Shown here in pieces: positions 1 through 37,744 of a stretch of DNA of 37,744 nucleotides. A model generated the notes under the pieces. It was not told the origin of the DNA and did no database searches. It saw only the letters and a list, made by a program, of their open reading frames with translations. Both the position numbers and the translations under genes were made by a program. Position 1 is the stretch's first letter, and every line of letters begins with the position of its first letter. Origin of the DNA: a virus (lineage: Duplodnaviria; Heunggongvirae; Uroviricota; Caudoviricetes); IMG/VR virus record IMGVR_UViG_2541047956_000006, one strand, 5' to 3'.

Positions 1-33
1 CGCACCAAACAGCAACGTCAGATGTTGTGCCAG
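1..33 (-). other. Host flank; continuation of the host membrane-protein ORF interrupted by the prophage
   Basis: Joining 1..33 to 37217..37744 (prophage and one TSD copy removed) gives a continuous minus-strand frame ...[18 protein letters not shown]. Confidence 0.6.
29..33. repeat. Target-site duplication, left copy (GCCAG)
   Basis: GCCAG immediately precedes the prophage left end TGTATTGATTCACTTG at 34; identical pentamer follows the right end. Confidence 0.85.
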
Positions 34-210
34 TGTATTGATTCACTTGAAGTACGAAAAAAACCGGGAGGACATTGGATTATTCGGGATTTGGCGGGAT
101 TAGATTTAGTGGGGCTTGCAAGCCAGTAGGACAGATTTTAGCCGTTACATCTTGAAACGCGAAAGATTGTTGGAAACAGCTTTTGATTCATTAAAGACAC
201 GAAAAGCAAT
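34..210 (+). promoter_or_regulatory. Left end (attL) with MuA end-binding repeats L1-L3
   Basis: Repeated CGAAA(A) motifs at 54..60, 158..165 and 197..207, matching the Mu end-repeat consensus as I recall it. Confidence 0.7.
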
Positions 211-372
211 TACTTCACGCATCATTTCAAGTACAGCTTCAAAAATGCTTCAAAAGCGGTAACAACCAGGCTTTCAGCAAGTGATGTGTGTCAAAAACAA
301 TCATCACTGTTTGGGTATCTTACATATGTAATTACCTGGAGTGAAGTTTATGTCTTAGCTATTACCTGGTTG

Positions 373-897
373 TTATACAGCTTTCTTTACATCGTTTTCT
401 CTTACAGGGAAATTATGTTCTTTGCCTTCATACTGAGACAAAATCTCTCTTACTTTTTCCGGTGGTAATGCTTGAAGAGTTTGCAGGGTTTTCTGTTGCT
501 CCACAGTAATCCCTAATGCCTCTAATGCCTTATCTTTACTGACAATTGTAGGCATAAGTCCTTTAATCCCTGCTACACGAATGATCTCCACAGCTGCGGC
601 CTGCTCATCTGGTGTTAAAAAGCTCATTGCATAAATTAGCCTCTCATCAACTGTATGGGCGATTGATGTATGCACTGGTTTATCAGAAAGTGAGGCACCT
701 TTAATGGCCCTGCGTGTTTCTTCTGGCAGACTGTTGATGTGATACTCATAAGCGACACCTTTCCCACCGTGACGCTGACGTTTTACCCAATCTTCCGCCA
801 CAGCTTTCCTGGTAATGTTAGTCGCCAACTTTGGTACACCAGGCATCCCTTCCAGCTCTTTCGCATTAAACCATTCTTTGATTTCAAAAGACATCAT
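373..897 (-). CDS. c: Repressor c (Mu/D108 family)
   Basis: 174 aa, minus strand at the left end, divergent from ner/A; N-terminus ([25 protein letters not shown]) is visibly homologous to the N-terminus of the transposase at 1312. Confidence 0.9.
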   Translation of the reverse strand: MMSFEIKEWFNAKELEGMPGVPKLATNITRKAVAEDWVKRQRHGGKGVAYEYHINSLPEETRRAIKGASLSDKPVHTSIAHTVDERLIYAMSFLTPDEQAAAVEIIRVAGIKGLMPTIVSKDKALEALGITVEQQKTLQTLQALPPEKVREILSQYEGKEHNFPVRENDVKKAV

Positions 898-1082
898 TTA
901 AAATCCTAGTGATTTCAATAGAGACAAAATAAATTCATATAAAAATCATGCCGTTATATGAAATCATGGTAAATCCTCTCAAATCCCTATTGATTTGAGA
1001 GTGATTCCACACTACATTGCACGATATGCCGTGAGCTACTTTATAGCGTAGCTCACGGGGGAATCTGAAAGGATTACATGAA
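898..1082. promoter_or_regulatory. Early operator/promoter region between c and ner; contains an 11-bp inverted repeat, candidate Ner operator
   Basis: Divergent intergenic region; perfect inverted repeat CCGTGAGCTAC (1029..1039) / GTAGCTCACGG (1048..1058) with 8-bp spacer, 25 bp upstream of ner. Confidence 0.6.
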
Positions 1083-1304
1083 ATGCATATGAATAAAAGA
1101 ACTAACCGCCAAGATTGGCACAGAGCTGACATCGTTGCAGAGCTACGAAAACGCAATATGTCACTAGCTGAATTGGGAAGATCTAATCATCTTTCGTCTT
1201 CAACATTGAAAAATGCTTTGGATAAGAGATATCCGAAAGCGGAGAAAATCATTGCAGATGCACTGGGAATGACACCGCAAGATATTTGGCCGTCTCGATA
1301 CTAG
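1083..1304 (+). CDS. ner: Ner, early transcription regulator (not the Mu-proper sequence; D108-like)
   Basis: 73 aa; contains the DWHRADI ... IWPSRY motifs of Ner proteins; position immediately upstream of A. Start may be 1083 or 1089. Confidence 0.9.
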
Positions 1305-1311
1305 GTGCGCT

Positions 1312-3300
1312 ATGAAAGAATGGTATACAGCAAAAGAGTTGCTCGGTTTGGCAGGTTTACCAAAGCAAGCCACTAACATTACACGTAAGGCACAAAGAGA
1401 AGGCTGGGAGTTCAGGCAGGTTGCAGGGACTAAAGGTGTATCATTTGAATTCAATATCAAATCATTCCCTGTCGCATTACGTGCTGAAATTCTGTTGCAA
1501 CAAGGGAGAATTGAAACAAGTCAGGGGTATTTTGAAATCGCCCGCCCCACGCTGGAAGCCCATGATTATGATCGTGAGGCACTGTGGAGCAAATGGGATA
1601 ACGCCAGCGATTCCCAGCGCAGACTTGCTGAAAAATGGTTGCCTGCGGTTCAGGCTGCAGACGAAATGCTGAACCAGGGGATTTCAACAAAAACGGCTTT
1701 TGCGACCGTTGCAGGGCATTACCAGGTCAGCGCATCCACTTTGCGGGACAAGTATTACCAGGTACAGAAGTTTGCGAAGCCTGACTGGGCGGCTGCGCTT
1801 GTTGATGGACGTGGTGCATCCCGTCGCAACGTTCACAAAAGTGAATTTGACGAGGATGCCTGGCAGTTTCTGATTGCAGATTATCTGCGACCGGAAAAGC
1901 CCGCCTTCCGCAAATGTTATGAGCGTCTGGAACTGGCAGCCCGCGAGCATGGCTGGAGTATTCCCTCCCGTGCCACGGCCTTTCGCCGGATTCAGCAACT
2001 GGACGAGGCAATGGTTGTTGCCTGTCGTGAAGGTGAACATGCACTGATGCATCTGATACCGGCACAGCAGCGAACTGTGGAACACCTGGACGCCATGCAG
2101 TGGATCAACGGCGACGGTTATCTGCATAACGTCTTTGTACGCTGGTTTAACGGTGATGTGATCCGCCCGAAAACATGGTTCTGGCAGGATGTGAAAACCC
2201 GAAAAATTCTGGGCTGGCGCTGCGATGTAAGCGAGAACATCGACTCAATTCGCCTCTCGTTTATGGATGTGGTGACACGCTACGGCATCCCGGAGGATTT
2301 TCACATCACCATTGATAACACCCGTGGTGCAGCGAATAAATGGCTGACGGGGGGCGCGCCCAATCGTTACCGCTTTAAGGTAAAAGAGGACGATCCAAAG
2401 GGACTGTTTTTACTGATGGGCGCGAAAATGCACTGGACAAGCGTTGTTGCCGGTAAAGGCTGGGGCCAGGCAAAACCTGTTGAACGTGCTTTCGGTGTTG
2501 GTGGGCTTGAGGAATACGTTGATAAGCATCCGGCACTGGCTGGCGCATATACGGGGCCAAATCCGCAGGCAAAACCTGATAACTATGGCGACCGCGCTGT
2601 TGATGCAGAGCTGTTTCTGAAAACCCTTGCCGAAGGTGTGGCGATGTTCAATGCCAGAACAGGCCGTGAAACAGAAATGTGCGGAGGCAAACTTTCGTTT
2701 GATGACGTTTTTGAGCGTGAATACGCCAGAACGATTGTGCGTAAGCCTACCGAAGAGCAAAAACGGATGCTGTTACTGCCTGCCGAGGCGGTGAACGTTT
2801 CACGTAAAGGCGAGTTCGCGCTTAAAGTTGGCGGCTCCCTTAAAGGTGCGAAAAACGTTTATTACAACATGGCGTTAATGAATGCCGGAGTGAAAAAAGT
2901 TGTGGTCAGATTTGATCCACAGCAGTTACACAGCACGGTTTATTGCTACACCCTGGACGGTCGGTTTATCTGTGAAGCGGAATGTCTGGCACCTGTTGCG
3001 TTTAATGATGCTGCGGCAGGCCGTGAATATCGCCGCCGCCAGAAACAACTGAAATCTGCGACGAAAGCAGCGATTAAGGCACAAAAACAAATGGATGCAC
3101 TGGAAGTGGCAGAGCTGCTGCCGCAGATAGCCGAACCTGAAGCACCAGAATCACGAATTGTCGGCATTTTCCGGCCTTCCGGTAATACGGAACGGGTGAA
3201 GAATCAGGAGCGTGATGATGAATACGAAACTGAGCGTGATGAATATCTGAATCATTCGCTGGATATTCTGGAACAGAACAGACGTAAAAAAGCCATTTAA
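1312..3300 (+). CDS. A: DDE transposase MuA
   Basis: 662 aa; from about residue 75 to the C-terminus (…[16 protein letters not shown]) matches Mu A as I recall it; N-terminal ~70 aa differ. Confidence 0.97.
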
Positions 3301-3338
3301 TTAACGTTTAAACAAAATTTAATTACGAGGTTATTCAG

Positions 3339-4277
3339 ATGAATATTTCCGATATTCGCGCAGGACTGCGCACGCTTGTAGAAAATGAAGAAACCACCTT
3401 TAAACAAATTGCTCTTGAGAGCGGACTTTCTACCGGAACTATCAGTAGTTTTATCAATGATAAGTACAACGGGGATAACGAGCGTGTTTCACAAATGCTG
3501 CAACGCTGGCTGGAAAAATATCATGCAGTTGCAGAATTACCTGAACCGCCCCGCTTTGTGGAAACGCAGACGGTAAAACAAATCTGGACAAGTATGCGTT
3601 TTGCCAGCCTGACTGAAAGTATTGCTGTTGTATGTGGCAATCCTGGTGTGGGCAAAACCGAAGCGGCCCGTGAATATCGCCGCACCAATAACAATGTCTG
3701 GATGATCACCATTACGCCATCCTGTGCCAGCGTTCTGGAATGTCTTACTGAACTGGCGTTTGAGCTGGGAATGAATGACGCACCACGCCGTAAAGGGCCG
3801 CTCTCTCGCGCCCTGCGACGTCGCCTTGAAGGTACACAGGGGCTGGTTATCATCGACGAAGCTGATCATCTTGGTGCCGAAGTTCTGGAAGAACTCCGCC
3901 TGTTACAGGAATCAACCCGTATTGGCCTTGTACTGATGGGAAATCACCGGGTTTATTCAAATATGACGGGGGGTAACAGAACGGTTGAATTTGCCCGTCT
4001 GTTTTCCCGTATTGCAAAGCGCACTGCAATTAATAAAACCAAAAAAGCCGATGTAAAAGCTATTGCGGATGCCTGGCAGATTAACGGCGAAAATGAACTG
4101 GAGTTATTACAGCAGATTGCGCAGAAACCAGGTGCGCTTCGCATTCTGAATCATTCACTTCGCCTTGCCGCCATGACGGCTCACGGTAAAGGTGAGCGTG
4201 TTAACGAAGATTATCTGCGTCAGGCTTTCCGTGAATTAGACCTGGACGTTGATATTTCAACGCTGCTGCGTAATTAA
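3339..4277 (+). CDS. B: MuB ATP-dependent target DNA activator
   Basis: 312 aa; Walker A GNPGVGKT, Walker B VIIDEADHL; position directly after A. Confidence 0.95.
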   Translation: MNISDIRAGLRTLVENEETTFKQIALESGLSTGTISSFINDKYNGDNERVSQMLQRWLEKYHAVAELPEPPRFVETQTVKQIWTSMRFASLTESIAVVCGNPGVGKTEAAREYRRTNNNVWMITITPSCASVLECLTELAFELGMNDAPRRKGPLSRALRRRLEGTQGLVIIDEADHLGAEVLEELRLLQESTRIGLVLMGNHRVYSNMTGGNRTVEFARLFSRIAKRTAINKTKKADVKAIADAWQINGENELELLQQIAQKPGALRILNHSLRLAAMTAHGKGERVNEDYLRQAFRELDLDVDISTLLRN

Positions 4278-4292
4278 GAAGGAGAAGAAATT

Positions 4293-4520
4293 ATGATGGC
4301 CCGAAATATAAAAATGGCAACGGATGCGCAGAACTGGTTACAGGCGCGCGGGAGTCATGTAAATGAATCATATCTCGGCGTGGCGCGTCCGATTCTTGAA
4401 ATCACTTACCCACCGGTGGAACTGGTAAAAAACGCGGTCAGAATTATGGAGCATAAGTCCGGGGTGGCCCGTTCTGTATGGACGGCCCGTCTTAATGGTT
4501 GCCAGATTATCTGGAGATAA
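4293..4520 (+). CDS. kil: Kil (host killing/cell-division inhibition protein)
   Basis: 75 aa ORF immediately after B with RBS GAAGGAGAAG upstream; matches Mu Kil position and size. Confidence 0.8.
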
Positions 4521-4522
4521 CG

Positions 4523-4753
4523 ATGTGTATTAAAGCTGAAAAATATATTGAATGGGTTAAACACTGTCAGTGCCACGGGGTGCCGCTGACGACATATAAA
4601 TGCCCCGGATGCGGTGAACAGATTATGACGCAATGCTCACACGAAAAGGAAATTCGGGATTCCCTGACATGTTGTCCGTGGTGCAGCGCAGTTTTCTTTA
4701 AGCAGGTAAAAGGCGCGAAGGTAAAAGCCAGCGCAGTTATTCAGAATCAATAA
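4523..4753 (+). CDS. Cys-rich small early protein, zinc-ribbon-like
   Basis: 76 aa from ATG 4523 (RBS GGAGATAACG); CQC, CPGC and CCPWC motifs. Track ORF starts at 4499 but that overlaps kil. Confidence 0.6.
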   Translation: MCIKAEKYIEWVKHCQCHGVPLTTYKCPGCGEQIMTQCSHEKEIRDSLTCCPWCSAVFFKQVKGAKVKASAVIQNQ

Positions 4754-4764
4754 GGAGAAATAAA

Positions 4765-5028
4765 ATGGCAAAGGTAATTATTGAAATTAAAAATACAGTA
4801 TCTGGAATTAAAGGACGGAATTTGCGCACCAGCATTGCGGTGGACGGTAGTGCGGAACTGGACGGTGATGAGGGGACACTTGCTGGCATGGTGGCGTTAC
4901 TGGTGCTTAATAAAAGCCAGAAAATAATTAATGAGTCAGCCCATGAAGCTATTGAGATTTTGAAAAACGATGGTGTCATCACAGGTGGCAGTGTCACTGA
5001 AATGGCTGTTGAAAAAACATGTCACTGA
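4765..5028 (+). CDS. Hypothetical early protein
   Basis: 87 aa ORF with RBS AAGGAGAAATAAA upstream; tightly packed in early operon. Confidence 0.6.
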   Translation: MAKVIIEIKNTVSGIKGRNLRTSIAVDGSAELDGDEGTLAGMVALLVLNKSQKIINESAHEAIEILKNDGVITGGSVTEMAVEKTCH

Positions 5029-5462
5029 AAGGAACGCTGACAATGAACGTCAAAATCCGAAATGAAATTCAGGCATTAATCCGAATTCAGGAACGCAATA
5101 ACAACGGTGGTGAATTACGCGAGTTTATTTGCACCCGGAAAGTTGATGATTGTGGTGAAAAGACGTACCTGATCGCTTTCGACCATTACAGCATCTGTGC
5201 GCGTTATTGCGGCGAAAGCATATCCCGCGCCATTGCATTTGGCGGTGCGTTCAACGTGGATTTATGGGAGTACGTCATGGACCGGGAATACATCTGCGCA
5301 TCAGACCCTGAAGCCCGTGAAATGTGGCAGCGTATCTGGCGCGATTACCGGTTAATGGCAAAAGGCTGGGCGCGCTGCTGTTATTCCTCACTTGCCCTGA
5401 AAGCGGTTCAGTTATCGCTGCGGCATATTCCGGCATCACTGCGCGAGCCTCTGCTGTACTGA
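5019..5462 (+). CDS. Hypothetical early protein (start 5019 or 5043)
   Basis: 147 aa ORF; alternative ATG at 5043 has a better-spaced AGGA. Confidence 0.6.
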   Translation: MSLKGTLTMNVKIRNEIQALIRIQERNNNGGELREFICTRKVDDCGEKTYLIAFDHYSICARYCGESISRAIAFGGAFNVDLWEYVMDREYICASDPEAREMWQRIWRDYRLMAKGWARCCYSSLALKAVQLSLRHIPASLREPLLY

Positions 5463-5762
5463 ATGGTGGCTGACATGAAGTGTAATCGTAAGCGCTGGTC
5501 ACGCGAAGACCGGGAATTTATCGAAGCCAACGTCGGGAAAATGACCGTTGAAGAAATGGCGGAAAAACTGAAAGTCGCCACAACCGCCCTCCGGGCACAT
5601 GCCAGAAGGCACGGAATATCATTGTGTGTATACCGAATCAGTGAACACGACAAATATTTATGTCGTGAACTTTATAAAGAAGGACTGGATATTCATGTCA
5701 TTGCCCGAAAGATGGAATTAAGCAATCGAGCTGTATCCAGCATTGTATACAGCGGATATTAA
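5463..5762 (+). CDS. Small early protein with helix-turn-helix-like segment
   Basis: 99 aa; KRWSREDREFIEANVGKMTVEEMAEKLKV resembles a Myb/sigma-region-4 type HTH. Start 5463 or 5475. Confidence 0.6.
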   Translation: MVADMKCNRKRWSREDREFIEANVGKMTVEEMAEKLKVATTALRAHARRHGISLCVYRISEHDKYLCRELYKEGLDIHVIARKMELSNRAVSSIVYSGY

Positions 5763-5781
5763 TTAACAGGAGCTTTAATTT

Positions 5782-6306
5782 ATGGCTAAACCAGCAAAAC
5801 GTATCAAAAGTGCCGCAGCGGCTTATGTGCCACAAAACCGCGATGCGGTGATTACTGATATTAAACGCATCGGGGATTTACAGCGCGAAGCATCACGTCT
5901 GGAAACGGAAATGAATGATGCCATCGCGGAAATTACGGAGAAATTTGCGGCCCGGATTGCACCGATTAAAACCGATATTGAAACCCTTTCAAAAGGCGTT
6001 CAGGGATGGTGTGAAGCGAACCGCGACGAACTGACGAACGGCGGCAAAGTGAAAACGGCAAATCTTGTCACCGGTGATGTATCGTGGCGGGTCCGTCCAC
6101 CATCAGTAAGTATTCGTGGTATGGATGCAGTGATGGAAACGCTGGAGCGTCTTGGCCTGCAACGCTTTATTCGCACGAAGCAGGAAATCAACAAGGAAGC
6201 GATTTTACTGGAACCGAAAGCGGTCGCAGGTGTTGCCGGAATTACGGTTAAATCGGGAATTGAAGATTTTTCCATTATTCCATTTGAACAGGAAGCCGGT
6301 ATTTAA
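5782..6306 (+). CDS. gam: Gam, host-nuclease inhibitor / DNA-end binding protein
   Basis: 174 aa; sequence (MAKPAKRIKSAAAAYVPQNRDAV...) matches Mu Gam as I recall it. Confidence 0.93.
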   Translation: MAKPAKRIKSAAAAYVPQNRDAVITDIKRIGDLQREASRLETEMNDAIAEITEKFAARIAPIKTDIETLSKGVQGWCEANRDELTNGGKVKTANLVTGDVSWRVRPPSVSIRGMDAVMETLERLGLQRFIRTKQEINKEAILLEPKAVAGVAGITVKSGIEDFSIIPFEQEAGI

Positions 6307-6404
6307 TACCACCATTAATATTTAATTAATTCACATTCTTTTAATTATGGCGCGATGCGTCAGGGGATTGCTCGCGCCTGAAACAGATTACTGAGGAATA
6401 AAAC

Positions 6405-6935
6405 ATGGTTGATGCAAAAATTCTGAATGGTGTCAGCACATTATTACGGGCTTACGGACGCCTGACCTGCGGAGTTCTGGCTGAAAAAATGAAGATGCCT
6501 CCCTCATCAATGGTGTATTTCCTGCGTGATGCGGTTGATGCCGGCGTTCTCACCGAATGCAACGGATTTTATGACGTTCCGCGCCCGCGTCCGACGCCGC
6601 CTGTAAGACGAAACGCAACTGAGCAGCCTGCTGTTGATGATGCGGTGTGGTGCAACTGGCGTCGCTCATTACCCTGGGTGGAAGGTAATACCATCCCCGC
6701 GCTGGCAAAAGAGTTTGCGACGGGCGTGCTGACCTGTGAATCCGTTCACATCGTTGCAGAAGTGGACAACAGAATGTGCGAACAGGGAATGCCACGTTTT
6801 GTGATGGCTTATATCGATATCCGGCTGGGGCGGTTTATTTGCAGTTCAAGCGCCTGGAATATCACCGACCATGTACTGCGTTATCTCATTCTTGATTGTT
6901 CTCCGGCTCCCGTAGCGGTGCAGGAGGTGGCGTGA
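6405..6935 (+). CDS. Hypothetical early protein
   Basis: 176 aa ORF with RBS GAGGAATAAAAC; stop overlaps next start (ATGA at 6933..6937). Confidence 0.6.
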   Translation: MVDAKILNGVSTLLRAYGRLTCGVLAEKMKMPPSSMVYFLRDAVDAGVLTECNGFYDVPRPRPTPPVRRNATEQPAVDDAVWCNWRRSLPWVEGNTIPALAKEFATGVLTCESVHIVAEVDNRMCEQGMPRFVMAYIDIRLGRFICSSSAWNITDHVLRYLILDCSPAPVAVQEVA

Positions 6936-7465
6936 TGTTTTTTAAAACGTCAAATCCCGCAGCACTGCTGGCGTGGGACCAGTTTATGGCGGACTGTCTG
7001 AAACTACGCGAAGAAGCCCGCCATCTTGATAAGGTTCTGGGTTGTGGTTGCCGGTCAGTATTCAGCACAGGTATTGGTGGGCGTTATTTTCATGGTGTGA
7101 ACTTTCCGGGGAATGAGCGCCCTTTCTCGCGGGAGCTGTGGACCGTACAACGGCCCGCATCAGGTAACAGTTGCAGGCCAAGAACATCGCGCATTCCTGC
7201 ACATCTGCGGGAGCAGTCAAAAGAGCTGGCGAAAATATGGCAGGAGAATATTCCGGTCACTTATGCCCGTACTGACGCTCTCTTACCCGCACTGGGACTG
7301 GATTTCAGCGCAACAATATTCGGCCCGCTCCGGTGGTTCCGTGTTGGTGATGTGATTTACGTCATGACAGGGATGACTCCCGCACAGGGCCGCATGACTG
7401 AAATCCTTTCTGACGAATTTATCCGGGCGCAAAAACAGGCGGAGGTAAACAATGGAAAACAATGA
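6935..7465 (+). CDS. Hypothetical early protein
   Basis: 176 aa from ATG 6935, preceded by CAGGAGG; track ORF from 6896 overlaps the upstream gene. Confidence 0.6.
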   Translation: MFFKTSNPAALLAWDQFMADCLKLREEARHLDKVLGCGCRSVFSTGIGGRYFHGVNFPGNERPFSRELWTVQRPASGNSCRPRTSRIPAHLREQSKELAKIWQENIPVTYARTDALLPALGLDFSATIFGPLRWFRVGDVIYVMTGMTPAQGRMTEILSDEFIRAQKQAEVNNGKQ

Positions 7466-7634
7466 AACATCGTATTCGTGGCTGGGGAAATTTACCACGG
7501 TGAAACAGGAATGCCCGACCTGCGGTAATGAATCCCCTGAATATCTGAAAGAGTGCCCTCATTGTGGCGGGCAGAAATGTAACCACTGCGATATGGGCGA
7601 TGACACGGCGTGCATGAATTGTGAAGGTGAGTGA
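7452..7634 (+). CDS. Small zinc-finger-like protein (four CxxC pairs)
   Basis: 60 aa with CPTC, CPHC, CNHC, CMNC. Confidence 0.55.
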   Translation: MENNETSYSWLGKFTTVKQECPTCGNESPEYLKECPHCGGQKCNHCDMGDDTACMNCEGE

Positions 7635-7635
7635 C

Positions 7636-7944
7636 ATGAATAATGGTGTATTTTCAAAATCAGAAGAGCTTGCCGCCCTGCTGATTGCCGGTGGTTTGCC
7701 GAAAAAAGAAGTGCATGACTTTGTGAATTTTGTATATGAGCCGTCTCATGAAAAAGCTATTGATGAGGTCATGGCGTACCGGTTTGGCATTATTGCTGAG
7801 TCACTGAGTCCTCACTGGATTATTGAAAATCTCCGCGCTATTGCTGATGGCAACGATAAATCAGCAGCCGTTGCTGCACTGGATGTGTTACGGCAAATGA
7901 GTCTGAAATTTTATCCTGAATTTATTCTGAGGGCCGCAAAATGA
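7636..7944 (+). CDS. Hypothetical early protein
   Basis: 102 aa from ATG 7636 with RBS AAGGTGAG; track start 7621 is a GTG overlapping the previous gene. Confidence 0.6.
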   Translation: MNNGVFSKSEELAALLIAGGLPKKEVHDFVNFVYEPSHEKAIDEVMAYRFGIIAESLSPHWIIENLRAIADGNDKSAAVAALDVLRQMSLKFYPEFILRAAK

Positions 7945-8243
7945 ACAATGAAGATAAATTTACTCCCCTTAATATTGATAACGTCATGGCTGAAAAAGGG
8001 ATGCTGGAACGTGTTCGCGCTATCGTTGAATATGGTATTAAGCATAATCTCACCGCCAGAGAAGTCCGTGACATTATCAACCGCGAAATGAATCGTCTGG
8101 AAACAGTAGTGGCACTGCAAAATGAAACAGCCCGCGAGGAGTACATCCGCCGCAGGCTGGGGTTATCAGACCAGGATATTGTTACTGACGCTCATGTGTT
8201 TGAGGCTTTTGAGATCCGTCAGCATCTGGGTCTAACGAACTGA
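7941..8243 (+). CDS. Hypothetical early protein
   Basis: 100 aa; start overlaps previous stop (ATGA). Confidence 0.6.
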   Translation: MNNEDKFTPLNIDNVMAEKGMLERVRAIVEYGIKHNLTAREVRDIINREMNRLETVVALQNETAREEYIRRRLGLSDQDIVTDAHVFEAFEIRQHLGLTN

Positions 8244-8448
8244 TAATGTCTTCCATGATCTTTGACAGTTGCATGTTTTCGCGGCGGCTTGTTCTTATTG
8301 CAGGCGCATCTTTTAAAATCTCTGCTGAAGAGCTGAAAATGGCCTGGCCCTCTTCTGCGGTGATGATCGCCTTCTTCACCAGAAGGCGCACCAGTGCTGA
8401 TGCAATCGCATAACCTGCAACATCATAAGGTTGTACATTATTTTCCAT
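8182..8448 (-). CDS. Candidate antisense small protein (88 aa), unknown function
   Basis: Fills the largest plus-strand coding gap in the prophage (8244..8517); ATG at 8448 preceded by GAGAGGA with ~4-nt spacing; balanced, helix-like composition. Confidence 0.35.
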   Translation of the reverse strand: MENNVQPYDVAGYAIASALVRLLVKKAIITAEEGQAIFSSSAEILKDAPAIRTSRRENMQLSKIMEDIISSLDPDADGSQKPQTHERQ

Positions 8449-8517
8449 AAAATCCTCTCTGATTGATGTGTAAATTCAGGCGGTGTTGCAGCACCGCCTC
8501 TTTCCGGAGGTACGATC

Positions 8518-9486: not shown

Positions 9487-9537
9487 CGCCCTCAATATTC
9501 TGTTGTGACGATAAAACGTTCATGACAGGAGGGCAAC

Positions 9538-10098
9538 ATGCCTGAGTTTTCCCCTGCATTCCTTCATTCGCTGAATTTCGTTATACGCCCTGATGTTGAA
9601 GGTGGCTATGTTAATGATCCTGCCGACCGTGGCGGCGAAACGAAATACGGTATTTCTGACCGTCGCGACGGCGTTATTGATGGCAAAACCGATGTTAACG
9701 GTGACGGAAAACCTGATACCCGCATTAAGGATTTAACCCGCGAGCAGGCGGCGCAGATCTACTGGCGTGATTACTGGCTGGCGGCAAAGTGTAACGAATG
9801 GCCTGATGGCGTTTCCTTATTCGTTTTTGATGCTGCCGTTCAGCACGGTGTTAAACGCGCGATTCAGATCCTCCAGGCGGCAGCAGGTGTTGATGATGAT
9901 GGCATCGTCGGTAAAAACACACGCGCAGCCGTTCTGCGTGCCGATACTGACTGGCTGCTGTTGCAGTGCTTCCTGCGTCGTTCCCGCTATTACGCAGGGA
10001 TTATCAAATCCAGTGCCTCGCAGGGGAAATATCTGAATGGCTGGTTTAACCGTCTGGATCTGCTCGCCAGCGCCTGTCGGGAGGTTCTGCATGGGTAA
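9538..10098 (+). CDS. GH108-like muramidase with C-terminal peptidoglycan-binding (PG_binding_3-like) region
   Basis: 186 aa; EGGYVNDPADRGGETKYGIS motif typical of GH108 N-termini; later DDDGIVGKNTRAAV resembles the PG-binding domain. Confidence 0.7.
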   Translation: MPEFSPAFLHSLNFVIRPDVEGGYVNDPADRGGETKYGISDRRDGVIDGKTDVNGDGKPDTRIKDLTREQAAQIYWRDYWLAAKCNEWPDGVSLFVFDAAVQHGVKRAIQILQAAAGVDDDGIVGKNTRAAVLRADTDWLLLQCFLRRSRYYAGIIKSSASQGKYLNGWFNRLDLLASACREVLHG

Positions 10099-18526: not shown

Positions 18527-19609
18527 ATGAAAAAACACGCGATTGGCATTGCCGCACTGAATGCGCTGTCCATTGACGATGACGGCTGGTGCCAGCTATT
18601 GCCTGCCGGTCATTTCAGTGCCCGTGATGGTCGTCCGTTTGATGTGACAGGCGGTCAGGGGTGGTTCATCGACGGTGAGATTGCCGGGCGTCTGATTGAA
18701 GGCGTTCGCGCGCTCAACCAGGACGTGCTGATTGATTACGAGCATAACCAGCTACGTAAGGACAAAGGATTACCCCCGGAACAACTCGTCGCGGCTGGCT
18801 GGTTTAACGCCGATGAAATGCAGTGGCGTGAAGGTGAAGGGTTATTTATCCACCCACGCTGGACGGCGGCGGCCCAGCAGCGCATCGATGACGGCGAATT
18901 TGGTTATCTCTCTGCGGTTTTTCCGTATGACACCGCCACCGGTGCGGTGCTGCAAATCCGCCTTGCTGCGCTGACCAATGACCCCGGTGCCACCGGCATG
19001 AAAAAGCTGACCGCACTGGCGGCAGACCTTCCCGACATCCTTCAACAGGAGAACAAACCCATGAATGAAACGCTGCGCAAGCTGCTTGCGCGTCTTGGGG
19101 TGACTGTCCCCGAAAATGCAGACATCACCGATGAACAGGCAACAGCGGCACTGACCGCGCTGGACACGCTGGAAATTAATGCCGGGAAAGTGGCGGCGTT
19201 GTCTGCCGAACTGGAAAAGGCACAGAAAGCCGCCGTTGACCTGACGAAATACGTCCCGGTGGAAAGCTACAACGCCCTGCGTGATGAACTGGCACAGGCG
19301 ACTGCACAAAGCGCCACAGCCAGCCTGAGCGCCGTTCTGGACAAGGCGGAACAGGAAGGCCGCATTTTCAAAAGCGAACGTACCTATCTGGAACAGCTTG
19401 GCGGTCAGATTGGCGTGGCGGCACTGTCGGCACAGCTTGAGAAAAAACAGCCCATCGCTGCGTTATCTGCCATGCAGACCACCACAGCGAAAATCCCGTC
19501 GCAGGAAAAACCGGCGGTGGCGGTGCTGTCTGCGGAAGATCTCGCCGCAGCCCGTCTGCTGGGTAAAACCGAAGCAGAATTTCTGAAACTGAAAGAGGAT
19601 TCAAAATAA
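18527..19609 (+). CDS. I: Head protease / scaffold protein I
   Basis: 360 aa; Ala/Glu-rich coiled-coil C-terminal half typical of a nested scaffold. Confidence 0.88.
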   Translation: MKKHAIGIAALNALSIDDDGWCQLLPAGHFSARDGRPFDVTGGQGWFIDGEIAGRLIEGVRALNQDVLIDYEHNQLRKDKGLPPEQLVAAGWFNADEMQWREGEGLFIHPRWTAAAQQRIDDGEFGYLSAVFPYDTATGAVLQIRLAALTNDPGATGMKKLTALAADLPDILQQENKPMNETLRKLLARLGVTVPENADITDEQATAALTALDTLEINAGKVAALSAELEKAQKAAVDLTKYVPVESYNALRDELAQATAQSATASLSAVLDKAEQEGRIFKSERTYLEQLGGQIGVAALSAQLEKKQPIAALSAMQTTTAKIPSQEKPAVAVLSAEDLAAARLLGKTEAEFLKLKEDSK

Positions 19610-20547
19610 TGCCAACTCCGATTACTCCTGCGATGATCACCTCGCTGATGACCGGCTACCGTGGCGATTTTCAGGCTGGTATGGCAATGGCCCCGTCGCA
19701 GTACCAGAAAATTGCAATGACCGTGCCATCCACGTCGAAATCCAACACGTACGGCTGGCTGGGCCAGTTTCCGCAATTCCGTGAGTGGATTGGTTCGCGT
19801 GTCATCGAGAAGATGAAAGCCTATGGCTATTCCATTGTGAACAAAACCTTTGAAGGCACGGTAGCCATTAGCCGGGATGACTTCGAAGACGACAATCTCG
19901 GTATTTATTCTCCACTGTTCCAGGAGATGGGCCGAGCCGCAGCGGCACAGCCGGACGAACTGGTGTTCGCAGCTCTGCGTGACGGTGTGAAAGTCGCCTG
20001 TTATGACGGACAGAACTTCTTCGATACCGAACATCCTGTTTATCCGAAAGTGGATGGCACCGGAGATGTGAAGAACGTCAGTAATAAATTTGTGGCACAG
20101 ACTGCCGAAAAAAGCGATTACACCGGTCCTGCCTGGTATCTGCTTGACTGTTCCCGCGCTGTGAAACCGCTGATTTATCAGGATCGCCGAAAGGCAGAAC
20201 TGGTTGCCCAGACCAAAGTCGATGAAGGCCGGGCCTTTACGGATAACGAGTTTGTGTTTGGTGCATCAGCCCGCCGCAATGTGGGGTACGGCTTCTGGCA
20301 GATGGCTTACATGATGCAGGCACCGCTGACGCTGGATAATCTCTGGCTCGGCTGGTCGGCCATGCGTGAATTTACGGCTGATGGCGGGCGCAAGCTGGGG
20401 ATTAAGCCCACGCACATTGTGGTGCCCACCTCTCTGGAAAAACAGGCGGTGCAGTTACTGGAACGCGAACTGTTCGCGGATGGCAATACCACCGTCTCCA
20501 ACGAGATGAAGGGTAAGCTGCAACTGGTTGTCGCTGACTACCTGTAA
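19609..20547 (+). CDS. T: Major head (capsid) protein T
   Basis: 312 aa; TAATG overlap with I; followed by a terminator hairpin. Confidence 0.9.
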   Translation: MPTPITPAMITSLMTGYRGDFQAGMAMAPSQYQKIAMTVPSTSKSNTYGWLGQFPQFREWIGSRVIEKMKAYGYSIVNKTFEGTVAISRDDFEDDNLGIYSPLFQEMGRAAAAQPDELVFAALRDGVKVACYDGQNFFDTEHPVYPKVDGTGDVKNVSNKFVAQTAEKSDYTGPAWYLLDCSRAVKPLIYQDRRKAELVAQTKVDEGRAFTDNEFVFGASARRNVGYGFWQMAYMMQAPLTLDNLWLGWSAMREFTADGGRKLGIKPTHIVVPTSLEKQAVQLLERELFADGNTTVSNEMKGKLQLVVADYL

Positions 20548-31950: not shown

Positions 31951-33473
31951 TGTTTTATATTGATAACGACAGCGGCGTAACCGTCATGCCGCCCGTATCC
32001 GCCCAGCGTAGTGCTATCGTTCGCTGGTTTTCAGAAGGTGACGGGAATAATGTTATCACATGGCCCGGCATGGACTGGTTTAATATTGTGCAGGCGGAGT
32101 TATTAAACACGCTGGAAGAAGCCGGTATTCAACCGGATAAAACAAAATTAAACCAGCTTGCACTGTCCATTAAAGCCATTATGAGCAATAACGCGCTGCT
32201 GATAAAAAATAACCTCAGCGAAATTAAAACTGCCGGGGCATCAGCACAGCGTACAGCACGTGAAAATCTGGATATCTATGATGCCAGCCTGAACAAAAAA
32301 GGACTCGTTCAGCTAACCAGTGCCACTGACAGCCCCAGTGAAACGCTGGCAGCCACCGCAAAAGCGGTGAAAATTGCGATGGATAATGCCAATGCCCGTC
32401 TGGCAAAAGACCGGAACGGAGCAGATATTCCCAATAAGCCGCTGTTTATCCAAAACCTCGGTTTACAGGAAACGGTAAATCAGGCTTCTGGCGCATTACA
32501 GAAAAACCAGAACGGCGCAGATATTCCCGATAAAAAACTATTCCTGCGTAATATCGGCACAACAAATTCAACAACCATGTCTTTTAGTGGTGGTGCTGGA
32601 TGGTTCAAACTGGCAACTGTAACAATGCCACAAGCCAGTTCCGTGGTTTACATAAGCCTGATTGGTGGCGCAGGGTTTAACGTTGGCTCCCCGCATCAAG
32701 CAGGCATCTCTGAGCTGGTTCTGCGTGCCGGAAATGGAAATCCAAAAGGTATTACTGGTGCATTATGGCGACGGACCTCGGTTGGATTTACTAATTTTGC
32801 ATGGGTGAATACATCCGGTGATACCTATGATGTTTATGTTGAAATAGGTAATTACGCCACAGGTGTTAATATTCAGTGGGATTATACCAGTAACGCCAGC
32901 GTAACGATTCATACATCACCAACTTATACAGCGAATAAACCAACAGGCCTGACAGATGGAACTGTATATGTAATTTACAGTTCGCACATTAAACCGACAG
33001 CTGCTGAGGTTGGGGCGTTGTCATTATCTGGCGGTCAATTGAATGGTGCACTGGGCATCGGAACATCCAGTGCTCTTGGTGGTAACTCGATTGTTTTGGG
33101 TGATAATGACACGGGATTTAAACAAAATGGCGACGGGTATCTGGATGTTTATGCTAATAACGTCCATGTTATGCGCTTTGTCTCCGGCAGTATTCAAAGT
33201 AATAAAACCATAAATATTACAGGTCGTGTTAATCCCTCAGATTACGGTAACTTTGATTCCCGTTATGTGAAAGATGTTCGACTTGGTTCACAGCAATATT
33301 ATGGCGTGAAAAACTGGCAAACATGGAATTTCCAGTGCCCGTCAGGTCATGTATTGACTGGTATTAATGTTCAGGATACAGGGTCCAATTCTGCCGATAA
33401 TATAGCGGGCGTTTATTACAGACCCGTTCAAAAGTATATAAATGGCACCTGGTATAATGTAGCGAGCGTTTAA
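31950..33473 (+). CDS. S: Tail fibre protein S (constant part plus currently expressed variable part)
   Basis: 507 aa; the left gix inverted repeat lies inside the gene at 32446..32494, marking the constant/variable junction. Confidence 0.9.
32446..32494. repeat. Left inverted repeat of G segment containing gixL (26-mer at 32446..32471)
   Basis: TTATCCAAAACCTCGGTTTACAGGAA...; reverse complement present at 35483..35531 with 2 mismatches over 49 bp. Confidence 0.85.
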
Positions 33474-33474
33474 T

Positions 33475-34002
33475 ATGATGCACTTAAAGAACATAAAAGC
33501 GGGTAACGCTAAAACACTGGAACAGTATGAGTTAACAAAGAAACACGGAGTTATCTGGCTTTACTCTGAGGACGGAAAAAACTGGTATGAGGAAGTGAAA
33601 AACTTTCAGCCAGACACCATAAAGATTGTTTACGATGAAAATAATATTATTGTCGCCATCACCAAAGATGCCTCCACGCTTAACCCTGAAGGTTTTAGCG
33701 TCGTTGAGGTTCCCGATATAACAACCAATCGTCGGGCCGATGATTCCGGTAAGTGGATGTTTAAGGACGGAGCTGTGGTTAAACGGATTTATACAGCTGA
33801 CGAACAGCAACAACAGGCCGAATCACAAAAGGCCGCGTTACTTTCCGAAGCAGAAAGCGTTATTCAGCCACTGGAGCGCGCTGTCAGGCTGAATATGGCG
33901 ACGGATGAGGAACGCGCACGACTGGAATCATGGGAACGCTACAGTGTTCTGGTCAGCCGTGTGGATACGGCAAATCCTGAATGGCCACAAAAGCCTGAAT
34001 AA
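33475..34002 (+). CDS. U: Tail fibre assembly protein U
   Basis: 175 aa; N-terminal ~120 aa clearly paralogous to the minus-strand ORF at 34031..34564. Confidence 0.88.
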
Positions 34003-34030
34003 AAATTAAGGCCCGATATCGGGCCTTCTC

Positions 34031-34564
34031 TCATTCTGGTTGTTCGGGAAACGTTACTGGCAGGCTGGAAGTGTCTGTAGATTCGACTTTCTGCGCAAAG
34101 AGCATCCACTCTGTTAATTTTTGTTTATTCTCGTCGGAAATGATGCCCAGCCGTAGCTGTGAGTCCCATAGCTGGGTTTTATCCCTGACAAGTTGCAACA
34201 GGCTTTGCTTTTCATTCTCTGCCTGCTGCCTCTGTTCCTCCTCGGTATAAGTTCGCTTTATCACTACGCCATCTTTGAACATCCATTTACCCGAAATATC
34301 AGCACGGCGATTTGCTGTAATATCAGGAACCTCAACGACGCTTGCGCCTTCTGGATTAATTGCTGAAACATCCTTTTCAATACAAATAATAACGCCGTTG
34401 TGGTCATAGACCATTTTCAACGTATCAGGCTGAAAGTTCTTTTGTTCCTCATACCAGTTTTTCCCATCCTCTGTATAAAGCCATTTGATGTTAAATTGTT
34501 TCGTTAGCTGGTATTGCTCTTTTGTTTTAGGGTTGCCAGCAGTAATATTTTTTAAGTGCATCAT
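34031..34564 (-). CDS. Alternative tail fibre assembly protein U'
   Basis: 177 aa, paralog of U, inside the G segment in inverted orientation. Confidence 0.85.
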   Translation of the reverse strand: MMHLKNITAGNPKTKEQYQLTKQFNIKWLYTEDGKNWYEEQKNFQPDTLKMVYDHNGVIICIEKDVSAINPEGASVVEVPDITANRRADISGKWMFKDGVVIKRTYTEEEQRQQAENEKQSLLQLVRDKTQLWDSQLRLGIISDENKQKLTEWMLFAQKVESTDTSSLPVTFPEQPE

Positions 34565-34566
34565 AA

Positions 34567-35518
34567 TTAAATACTCCCCGCGTTATACCACGTTCCATTA
34601 ATGCAATACTGAATTGGCCTTGCCTGAGTTGTATCAATTAATTCATCACGGTTTCCGTTAACTGAACCCGTAACGACATAACCTGACCTGTCAGACCAGC
34701 CGGGACCATTCCATGTCTGAACAGATGACAGACCGCCAAGGCGAATACCTGTAATAAACCTTGAGTTACATTCTGCCTGCGTGTATGCACCAACATCTCC
34801 CGCAGAGGGTTTGCGGGTTGTGGTGTAAAACTCTGACCAGTCAGCTTCAAAGCCATAACCATCACGCGCTGAACGATAAAAGATACCGCCATTTCTGTAA
34901 TTCACGCGGAACTGTACAGCAGGGCAGCTCCCCGTATTCATATTGAAGTGGAGGATTAATGTCGATGCGCCACCAATATTTGCGTTATAGACCCCGCTAT
35001 TCCAGTTCCAGCCAACAGCTTTATCATTTCCGACAGTGCTTCCTGTTTGCCCTAAAGCAAATGCAGACTGCTGGTTTTTCGTGTTGTAGTCTCGTCGCCA
35101 GCCAGGAGCATAAGCATCACCATGATTAATATAGGTGAATTGAGCGTTAGTAATTCCGCCACCGCTGGAAGTGCTCGGGGTGGTTACACGGATGGTCATG
35201 GCTCCTTTATTACCCATAACCTCAATAACGCAACCTGCAAGATGAATAGTTCCACAGCCAGTATCGGTAATAATTTTATTATTGCCGTATGACCATGAAC
35301 ATTTGCACATCCAGTATGGGTGATTGAATGCCCCTTGAGAATCCAGCCATTCAATCAATTGTGCCGTCGTCCAGTTTCCTGCACCTGTGCTAATAGCACC
35401 ATGAAAAGAGCGGCAAGCACCTATTGTTTGCGTAAATTTATCTTTGTTTGGAATATCTGCGCCATTCTGGTTTTTCTGCAACGCACCAGAAGCCTGATTT
35501 ACCGTTTCCTGTAAACCG
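34567..35518 (-). CDS. Alternative tail fibre variable C-terminal part S' (no own start; fused to the constant part of S after inversion)
   Basis: Open frame running into the right gix repeat; its first codons ([11 protein letters not shown]) repeat the sequence at the constant/variable junction of S. Track start at 35481 is a TTG. Confidence 0.8.
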
Positions 35519-35531
35519 AGGTTTTAGATAA
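35483..35531. repeat. Right inverted repeat of G segment containing gixR (26-mer at 35506..35531)
   Basis: Reverse complement of 32446..32494 with 2 mismatches. Confidence 0.85.
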
Positions 35532-36450: not shown

Positions 36451-37096
36451 GTATGAAGGCCAGATTGTTGGCTATGGTTCAAAGGAACTGCGCGTTGAAA
36501 CCATATCCTGCTGGCTGGCCCGCACAATTATTCAGACAAAGCACTATTCCCGCCGTTTTGTGAATAACTCTTACCTCCACCTGGGAGTATTCAGCGGACG
36601 CGATCTGGTTGGCGTTCTCCAGTGGGGATATGCCCTTAACCCCAACTCAGGTCGTCGTGTCGTGCTTGAAACGGATAACCGGGGCTATATGGAGTTGAAT
36701 CGCATGTGGCTACACGACGACATGCCCCGCAACTCTGAATCACGGGCCATCAGCTACGCGCTGAAAGTTATCAGATTACTGTATCCGTCAGTGGAGTGGG
36801 TTCAGTCATTTGCTGACGAACGCTGCGGACGCGCAGGCGTTGTGTATCAGGCGTCGAATTTTGATTTTATTGGCAGCCATGAAAGCACGTTCTACGAGCT
36901 GGATGGTGAGTGGTATCACGAGATAACGATGAACGCGATTAAGCGGGGTGGACAACGAGGCGTGTATTTACGGGCTAATAAAGAGCGTGCCGTGGCGCAC
37001 AAATTTAATCAGTATCGCTACATCAGATTCCTGAACAAGCGAGCAAGGAAGCGGCTAAATACCAAACTATTCAGGGTTCAGCCATACCCTAAGTGA
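36371..37096 (+). CDS. mom: Mom DNA modification protein (start uncertain: ATG 36371 or GTG 36401)
   Basis: Last gene before right end; overlaps com in another frame. Confidence 0.85.
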
Positions 37097-37116
37097 TCCC
37101 CATGTAATGAATAAAA

Positions 37117-37140
37117 AGCAGTAATTAATACTGCTGTTTC
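37117..37140 (+). terminator. Hairpin after mom, candidate terminator
   Basis: 7-bp stem AGCAGTA / TACTGCT with 5-nt loop followed by GTTTC. Confidence 0.55.
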
Positions 37141-37211
37141 ATTTGAAGCGCGAAAGCTAAAGTTTTCGCATTTATCGTGAAACGCTTTCGCGTTTTTCGT
37201 GCGCCGCTTCA
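37141..37211 (+). promoter_or_regulatory. Right end (attR) with MuA end-binding repeats R1-R3
   Basis: GCGAAAG/CGAAAA-type repeats in both orientations; terminal ...GCGCCGCTTCA. Confidence 0.8.
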
Positions 37212-37744
37212 GCCAGCGCGTCGTCAAACACATCCTGACGGTTGGCGTATTCTTTCATTAACGAGAGATCGTTAAGCGTGCCGGAGTACAGCAACCACAG
37301 CGGAACAATGGCAATCTGCATATGCAACAACCAGCGCCACAGCGGATGCGTGGAGATTCGGCGGATGGCATCGCTACAGGCCAGCAGTGCCAGCGCCGCA
37401 GCCAGCCAGAAACCACTTCCGAGGCAGGTACGCGCCAGCGCACTACCATTTTGCGCCAGTTGTGTCGCCGCCTTTCCAGCTCCCCACACCAGCAATACGA
37501 AGACGAATTGCGCCAGAATGAGTGCAAAAATGCTGCCTTTTTTAGCGGGAATAAAACAGGCTGTCAGCCAGGCGCAACCAACGCCCACCAGCATCCAGAG
37601 AGTTTGCGGCCACAGCTGCCAGAGATGACGCCCCTCACCCGAAACTAAACGATTAGGTGCGTAACTGATAAACGGCAGCGCCGCTGCGATTGCCGTCAGC
37701 AACAGCAGCAGCGCCAGAACAGGATTAATACGGAAATAAGTCAC
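37172..37744 (-). CDS. Host integral membrane protein, 5' portion; last 13 codons come from the prophage right end (gene split by insertion). 5' end runs off the window
   Basis: Minus-strand ORF with several hydrophobic helices; frame continues across the reconstructed empty site into 33..1. Confidence 0.7.
37212..37216. repeat. Target-site duplication, right copy (GCCAG)
   Basis: Identical to 29..33. Confidence 0.85.

Follow-up and report, generated by a model that had tools for sequence, protein, structure and literature searches.

A D108-type immunity and early-control cassette in an apparently intact Mu-like prophage inserted in Escherichia coli yehY

The virus record IMGVR_UViG_2541047956_000006, a stretch of 37,744 nt referred to here as the window, contains a Mu-like prophage at positions 34-37211 that has transposed into the Escherichia coli gene yehY. 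Our analysis strongly suggests, with a probability that we put at roughly 0.93, that positions 394 to about 1526 of this otherwise Mu-like and apparently intact element represent a D108-type allele of the Mu-family immunity and early-control cassette, in which the repressor c, the early negative regulator Ner, the N-terminal domain I-alpha of the transposase A and the corresponding DNA sites would be co-adapted. An earlier note on the same DNA had described a repressor, a Ner protein and a transposase N-terminus that do not match those of Mu, and had proposed a heteroimmune, D108-like relative of this phage; the observation is confirmed by the comparisons below, and the interpretation is supported by them. 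In the following, the relationships between sequences, the assignment of domains, the paralogy, the clusters of motifs, the junctions and the insertion are direct observations.

The cassette and its Mu-like flanks

At the DNA level, window 34-4797 aligns to phage D108 (GQ357916) with 98.7% identity and zero gaps; a blastn search with window 1-4600 as the query gave 98.8% over 34-4533, likewise gapless, and the stretch 373-1500 is 98.6% identical to D108, in agreement with the earlier assignment to the D108 rather than the Mu type. When window 1-4600 was compared to Mu (AF083977; blastn, word size 7, E<=1e-3), just two matches were obtained, 34-393 at 79.6% and 1500-4481 at 98.1% identity, and the intervening stretch 394-1499 gave none even at this word size. 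The near-identity to Mu which the note had named as the outcome that would speak against its proposal was, accordingly, not seen in the alignments to both phages. Mu proper that has accumulated changes by drift is ruled out by the lack of DNA similarity over 394-1499, and the Mu-type combination of c, operators, ner and 5' end of A was not found. Farther to the right, the flank at 1500-7645 is 97.6% identical to Mu. In a megablast search of all phage records, the match of the Mu-type genomes (Mu, PhiR68_1 and the Yersinia phages vB_YpM_3 and vB_YpM_23) starts exactly at position 1500, and the full query is covered only by D108, Mu_3F6 and SfMu.

A three-way alignment located the edges of the cassette more closely. 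On the left, the stop codon and the last seven codons of c, which encode the C-terminal tail ..VKKAV, are common to the window and Mu, and the divergence from Mu thus begins at about position 394. On the right, DNA identity to Mu is back at about 1510, with the last cassette-specific differences at about 1524/1526, corresponding to residue 71 of A, which is Q in the window and L in Mu. The interval of 373-1500 proposed earlier was therefore accurate to within a few codons: its right edge agrees with the return of identity at about 1510, while the left edge has to be moved from 373 to about 394. The left end of the prophage together with the stretch downstream of c (34..393, plus strand) is of the D108 type and yet 79.6% identical to Mu in the blastn comparison. 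The transposase-binding sites annotated at D108 11-27 and 156-172 correspond to window 44-60 and 189-205 at an offset of 33.

The proteins follow the same division. The repressor gene c occupies 373..897 on the minus strand and encodes 174 residues, 172 of which are identical in D108 c (98.9%), compared to an identity of 29-31% to the repressor of Mu. Its N-terminal part, approximately residues 8-65, constitutes a Mu-type winged-helix DNA-binding domain (PF02316, E=3.2e-51; PDB 1TNS, E=6.9e-8; PDB 1G4D, E=6e-4). The gene ner (1083..1304, plus strand) is positioned between the putative operators and A, immediately upstream of the latter, and its 73-residue product is identical to D108 Ner at 73 of 73 positions and 49-53% identical to Mu Ner. 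With 99.3 bits against PF13693 (HTH_35; E=1e-28), where the curated cut-off is 25, and with matches to the PDB entries 7F9H (EnrR, E=1.5e-22) and 1NEQ (Mu Ner, E=1.7e-18), it belongs to the Ner family.

The transposase A is full length (1312..3300, plus strand; 662 residues), matches PF02316, PF09039, PF02914 and PF09299, and is identical to D108 A throughout (662/662). Its overall identity to MuA of 93.5% is distributed very unevenly: 32 of 72 residues (44%) are shared over positions 1-72, compared to 580/582 (99.7%) from residue 80 to the end. The earlier note had described the transposase as Mu-like from about residue 75 onward, which fits well with a last cassette-specific difference at residue 71. 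The D108-specific part is domain I-alpha, the enhancer-binding winged helix, which comprises residues 1-71 or 72 (1312..1526, plus strand) and provides the right edge of the cassette; the 76-residue MuA I-alpha structure 1TNS matches A(1-75) with E=6.9e-17, and 1G4D matches A with E=1.6e-4. The 312-residue transposition protein B (3339..4277, plus strand) lies outside the cassette and is 99.7% identical to both Mu and D108 B. D108-type features were hence found for c, for Ner, for A, in which a D108-type I-alpha precedes a Mu-type remainder, and for the cis-acting sites between c and ner.

Shared DNA-binding domains and the sites between c and ner

On the basis of their sequences, the N-termini of c and A are paralogous winged-helix domains whose homology is far above chance, as the earlier note had recognized. 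A(1-60) and c(6-65) are 55% identical (E=7e-22); A, like c, matches PF02316, the 'Mu DNA-binding domain' (E=1.3e-41), and both N-termini match 1TNS (MuA I-alpha) as well as 1G4D (Mu repressor DNA-binding domain), which places them in the Mu-type winged-helix family (PF02316; 1TNS, 1QPM/1G4D). The candidate recognition segment co-varies within each phage: in a 29-residue W..W core, c and A share 19/29 positions in the window and 14/29 in Mu, while cross-phage pairs share 6-11/29. The segment ATNITRKA occurs in both c and A of the window, and AGVxYxA in both Mu proteins. Such a co-variation of c and A within each phage would be expected if both domains read the same phage-specific DNA.

Alternatively, the likeness of the two N-termini might stem from a recent gene conversion or duplication of the 5' ends within the genome rather than from selection for a shared target. 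The coding DNA at 1312-1382 is indeed 74.6% identical over 71 nt to the reverse complement of 812-882, the two 5' ends being inverted and about 430 bp apart, and the paralogues within the window (55%) are closer to each other than are the c-c (28%) and A-A (44%) orthologues. However, a DNA divergence of 25% is not recent, and published work on Mu places the enhancer on the operators (PMC3820752). In addition, Mu independently exhibits the same pattern, with c and A being 41% identical and sharing 14/29 core residues, which indicates recurring co-evolution and not a single accident. We therefore consider a recent conversion instead of shared-target selection to be rather improbable. The two processes are compatible, and conversion could have been the route by which the co-variation arose.

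The stretch in which a common target of the two domains would have to be sought is the c-ner intergenic region together with the first codons of c. This region (880..996) harbors eight AAATC/GATTT cores, arranged in two clusters (880-915 and 971-996) that flank an AT-rich centre. With eight cores in 117 bp, at a background of 3.8 per kb, this is the densest cluster of the window. The AAATC clusters are predicted to be the operator and transposition enhancer, bound by both c and A I-alpha. No AAATC core occurs in positions 900-1100 of Mu, where AAAAG/CTTTT is the commonest pentamer. Between the two clusters lies an IHF-consensus-like site, AATCATGCCGTTA (944..956, plus strand), a weak pattern match with one mismatch.

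Just to the right, a candidate early promoter, Pe, was recognized by eye at 990..1018 on the plus strand, with the -35 hexamer TTGATT (990-995), a spacer of 17 nt and the -10 hexamer TACATT (1013-1018); the right-hand core cluster extends into it. Directly downstream of this candidate, a perfect 11-bp inverted repeat, CCGTGAGCTAC-N8-GTAGCTCACGG (1029..1058), has arms that are 100% complementary and that are absent from the entire Mu genome. The repeat is likely to be the Ner-binding site, in agreement with the Ner site of D108, which is reported to consist of 11-bp inverted repeats with an 8-bp spacer.

Conservation of these elements was assessed in ten sequences of the D108/SfMu type, namely the window, D108, SfMu, E24377A and six further E. 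coli prophages. Of the eight AAATC cores, five are unchanged throughout this set and one more is constant in all D108-type members, and the substitutions among the ten sequences are located between the cores. Similarly, the arms of the inverted repeat are unchanged in 10/10 sequences, with a spacer that varies in the SfMu type, and both hexamers of the candidate Pe are the same throughout (10/10); it is this conservation that argues for Pe as the putative early promoter. Compared to D108 alone, the c-ner intergenic region is gapless and the Ner inverted repeat is identical. As the AAATC core has been spared by natural variation, it offers a sequence-based guess at the recognition element.

Several observations weigh against this assignment of sites and are to be set against the conservation. 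The AAATC core is a de novo motif from the present analysis, and the exact operator boundaries may differ. The window contains 22 IHF-like matches where 29 would be expected, which is no enrichment, and what speaks for the site at 944..956 is thus its position, analogous to that of the IHF site of Mu. The candidate Pe matches the consensus at just 8/12 positions, below the threshold of the promoter scan; the promoter and terminator scan of 300-1400 revealed no credible early or repressor promoter and one weak match inside c. Finally, seven substitutions separate the window from laboratory D108 within 952-1001, all of them outside the AAATC cores, and an operator specificity identical to that of D108 is thus an assumption.

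The substitutions in the window create a perfect 10-bp palindrome, CTCTCAAATC-N6-GATTTGAGAG, at 976-1001, which D108 does not possess, and natural D108-type prophages are polymorphic in this part of the operator region (window 951-1001). The repressor itself departs from that of laboratory D108 at two residues, where D108 carries the changes Y50N and A80V (codons at 748-750 and 658-660). The c protein of the window equals that translated from four of six sampled natural E. coli prophages (RefSeq label WP_000986830.1), and a Y is likewise present in SfMu c at the counterpart of residue 50. The repressor allele of the window thus appears to be the common natural one, and the sequenced laboratory D108 appears to carry two private substitutions; these may be laboratory mutations, and it might be speculated that they represent a temperature-sensitive allele. 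That the natural allele, with Y50 and A80 in c and the operator variant with the palindrome, confers an immunity specificity, a repression strength or an inducibility measurably unlike that of laboratory D108 seems unlikely to us. If it did, the operator polymorphism among natural D108-type prophages would mean that immunity is still diversifying inside a single cassette type.

The pairing of proteins and sites, the use of the promoter and the immunity phenotype can be predicted from homology and from published work on Mu and D108. In lysogeny, the winged helix of c would bind the AAATC-rich operators at about 880-996, thereby switching off the early promoter, and operator-bound c would also exclude A from the enhancer. 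After derepression, Ner on the inverted repeat at 1029-1058 would damp early and repressor transcription during lytic growth, and A I-alpha (residues 1-71) would contact the same operator DNA, which would then be used as the transposition enhancer. The parts of A that are identical to Mu, the I-beta/gamma, catalytic and C-terminal domains, would handle the ends, the chemistry and the interaction with B. For Mu, operator and enhancer are drawn as one element, O/E, within an ordered interaction of left end, enhancer and right end (PMC3820752, Fig. 6). Proteins and sites are thus exchanged as one set in an element whose remaining transposase is 99.7% Mu-like. The likely recombination points are, on one side, the 3' end of c and the adjoining DNA towards attL and, on the other, the linker between I-alpha and I-beta. 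Since only the specificity-determining parts differ from Mu, transposition like that of Mu and mutual insensitivity to the repressors would be expected. Heteroimmunity with Mu is likewise suggested by the absent DNA similarity, a repressor identity of about 29% and the different operator motifs.

The prophage, its insertion site and its mosaic structure

The left end (attL) of the prophage starts with TGTATTGATTCACTTGAAGTACGAAA at base 34, as read directly from the sequence, and the right end, ...GCGCCGCTTCA, has its last base at 37211. The two ends can be aligned with the termini of D108 and of Mu, reaching Mu 1 on the left and Mu 36717 on the right. The element is flanked by a 5-bp duplication of host yehY DNA, GCCAG, at 29..33 and 37212..37216, also read directly; a target duplication of this size is typical of Mu transposition. 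The prophage, with host DNA at 1-33 and 37212-37744, interrupts yehY, which encodes a glycine betaine ABC transporter permease, and the right flank is 100% identical to the yehY allele of Nissle 1917, ATCC 25922 and ABU 83972. With Mu-type ends, a 5-bp duplication and intact A and B genes, the element has the features of a Muvirus-type transposable prophage.

It might be argued that the cassette resides in a decayed, non-functional remnant in which the regulatory logic is no longer in use, and some relatives are indeed remnants: the copy in E. coli E24377A has a deletion from B to the baseplate genes, and the c gene of elppa5 is frameshifted at its start. In the window, however, c, ner, A and B are intact open reading frames, and tblastn identified homologues free of in-frame stops in the aligned stretch for 52 of the 53 Mu proteins, 49 of them at full length, by which the prophage looks intact. 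Both prophage ends and the 5-bp duplication are preserved as well, and the operator cores and the inverted repeat are conserved. We consider decay to be quite unlikely.

The close relationship over the left end raises the question of whether the window is phage D108 itself, either the laboratory phage or a direct copy, as the gapless alignment over 34-4797 and the complete identity of the A and Ner proteins would suggest. This is contradicted by the remainder of the element. The segments 4798-5027, 7646-8478, 9504-10089 and 32528-33413 do not align to D108, an additional gene with a Glyco_hydro_108 domain is present, a homologue of gp19 is missing, and c deviates at the two residues discussed above. 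At its right end the element belongs to the Mu/SfMu type, 37093-37211 being 99% identical to SfMu, and gene 56, annotated as 'D108-specific protein', is absent; D108 immunity is therefore not linked to the right end of D108. Moreover, the element sits in yehY, with its own target duplication and a flank of the Nissle 1917/ATCC 25922/ABU 83972 type. Identity with D108 is thus exceedingly unlikely, and D108 as a whole element is ruled out by the mosaic map, in which neither collinearity along the whole genome nor gene 56 was found. We conclude that the window carries a natural, apparently intact mosaic prophage of E. coli with a D108-type immunity cassette.

The mosaic character extends to several loci outside the cassette. 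The additional gene is an open reading frame of 186 residues (9538-10098, plus strand; Glyco_hydro_108 and PG_binding_3) with mor on one side and the gp18 homologue on the other; Mu, D108 and SfMu do not have it, and no homologue of the Mu membrane protein gp19 was found in the window. The 312-residue major head protein (19609-20547, plus strand) is 68.5% identical to Mu T, compared to 96-100% for the neighboring head genes, which marks it, judging by its sequence, as a local mosaic patch. The variable C-terminal part of the tail-fibre gene S (32528-33413) matches none of Mu, D108, SfMu and the E24377A remnant, and part of the invertible G region (33228-35531) has to be reversed to match SfMu. 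Pfam gave no match for two open reading frames of the semi-essential early region: one of 107 residues at 7621-7944 on the plus strand, where the stretch 7646-7937 aligns to neither Mu nor D108, and one of 88 residues at 8182-8448 on the minus strand, in a stretch that matches Mu and not D108. Rfam and tRNA scans of the whole window gave no matches.

Comparison with known immunity systems

The D108-type immunity cassette has been known since 1986 and is not novel. The immunity regions of D108 and Mu are the classic case in which repressor and transposase share a DNA-binding domain and one site serves as operator and enhancer. The pattern seen here was reportedly described by Mizuuchi, Weisberg and Mizuuchi in 1986 (NAR 14:3813), which, like the D108/Mu work of Harshey et al. 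from 1985 (PNAS 82:7676), is cited in PMC3820752, and footprinting of D108 is said to be the subject of Kukolj and DuBow 1991 and of Mizuuchi 1986. The window adds one more natural instance of this cassette, and its value lies mainly in correct annotation.

Among 5,426 complete E. coli genomes, the D108-type cassette was counted in 45-46 and the Mu type in 27, with the common A core being present in 89. Laboratory strains, for example BW2952 and S17-1, are among the 27 Mu-type genomes. In natural Mu-like prophages of E. coli, immunity of the D108 type thus appears to be more frequent than that of the Mu type. No immunity region identical to that of the window was found among the complete E. 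coli genomes of the collection, the best being 99.8% identical. The closest relative of the left end is the remnant in E. coli E24377A (1062302-1074785, in ssuA), which is 99.9% identical over 34-3640 and in which all of the DNA from a point inside B as far as the baseplate genes is missing.

In gene order, spacing and Ner inverted repeat, the cassette of the window is identical to the immunity region of D108 (GQ357916/NC_013594), while T and S differ between the two phages. Mu (AF083977) shares with the window the general layout of a leftward c, intergenic operators and rightward ner-A-B, along with the PF02316 and PF13693 families, the N-terminal paralogy of c and A, the repressor tail and a transposase that is identical from the I-alpha/I-beta linker onward. 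In contrast, the Mu repressor is 196 residues long instead of 174, the operator repeat of Mu is CTTTT/AAAAG instead of AAATC, and the 11-bp inverted repeat has no counterpart in Mu.

A D108-family cassette is also carried by the Shigella phage SfMu (KP010268) and by about five E. coli prophages of the same sub-type. Here, the DNA is 86% identical to the window over 373-1500, with identities of about 91% for c and of 98.6% each for Ner and A. The arms of the Ner inverted repeat and most AAATC cores are kept, whereas divergence is seen in the central operator region and in the middle of c, three cores out of eight carry changes (943, 961 and 992) and the 8-bp spacer differs. In line with this, the SfMu report gives, in its comparison of these two proteins, 89% and 98% identity to D108 for c and Ner, and 24% and 47% to Mu (PMC4406740).

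The Mu-like prophage of E. coli SE11 (NC_011415) represents a third immunity type. In the comparison with the window, similarity ceases at 393 and sets in again at 1509, which corresponds to junctions at 1225 and 2410 of the extracted SE11 sequence. The tail VKKAV of c is common to SE11 and the window, as is the core of A, which is 99.8% identical from residue 80, while Ner and A I-alpha are just 39% and 40% identical to those of the window. The SE11 repressor (extract 1205-1813, minus strand) combines a Cro/C1-type HTH_3 N-terminus with a Mu-repressor-like C-terminus that ends in VKKAV, and an I-alpha-like domain is still present in the transposase (extract 2204-2500). As the N-terminus of this repressor is HTH_3 and not the Mu winged helix, the paralogy of c and A is not universal in this group of phages, and the shared logic of operator and enhancer perhaps fails in the SE11 type. 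From residue 80 to its end, A is 99.1-100% identical among the window, D108, SfMu, Mu and SE11. Judged from these alignments, the same two junctions, at 393/394 and at 1500-1510, bound three unrelated cassettes, those of the D108, Mu and SE11 types. The cassette boundary thereby coincides with a linker between protein domains and is used repeatedly, by three or more immunity cassettes that are unrelated to one another.

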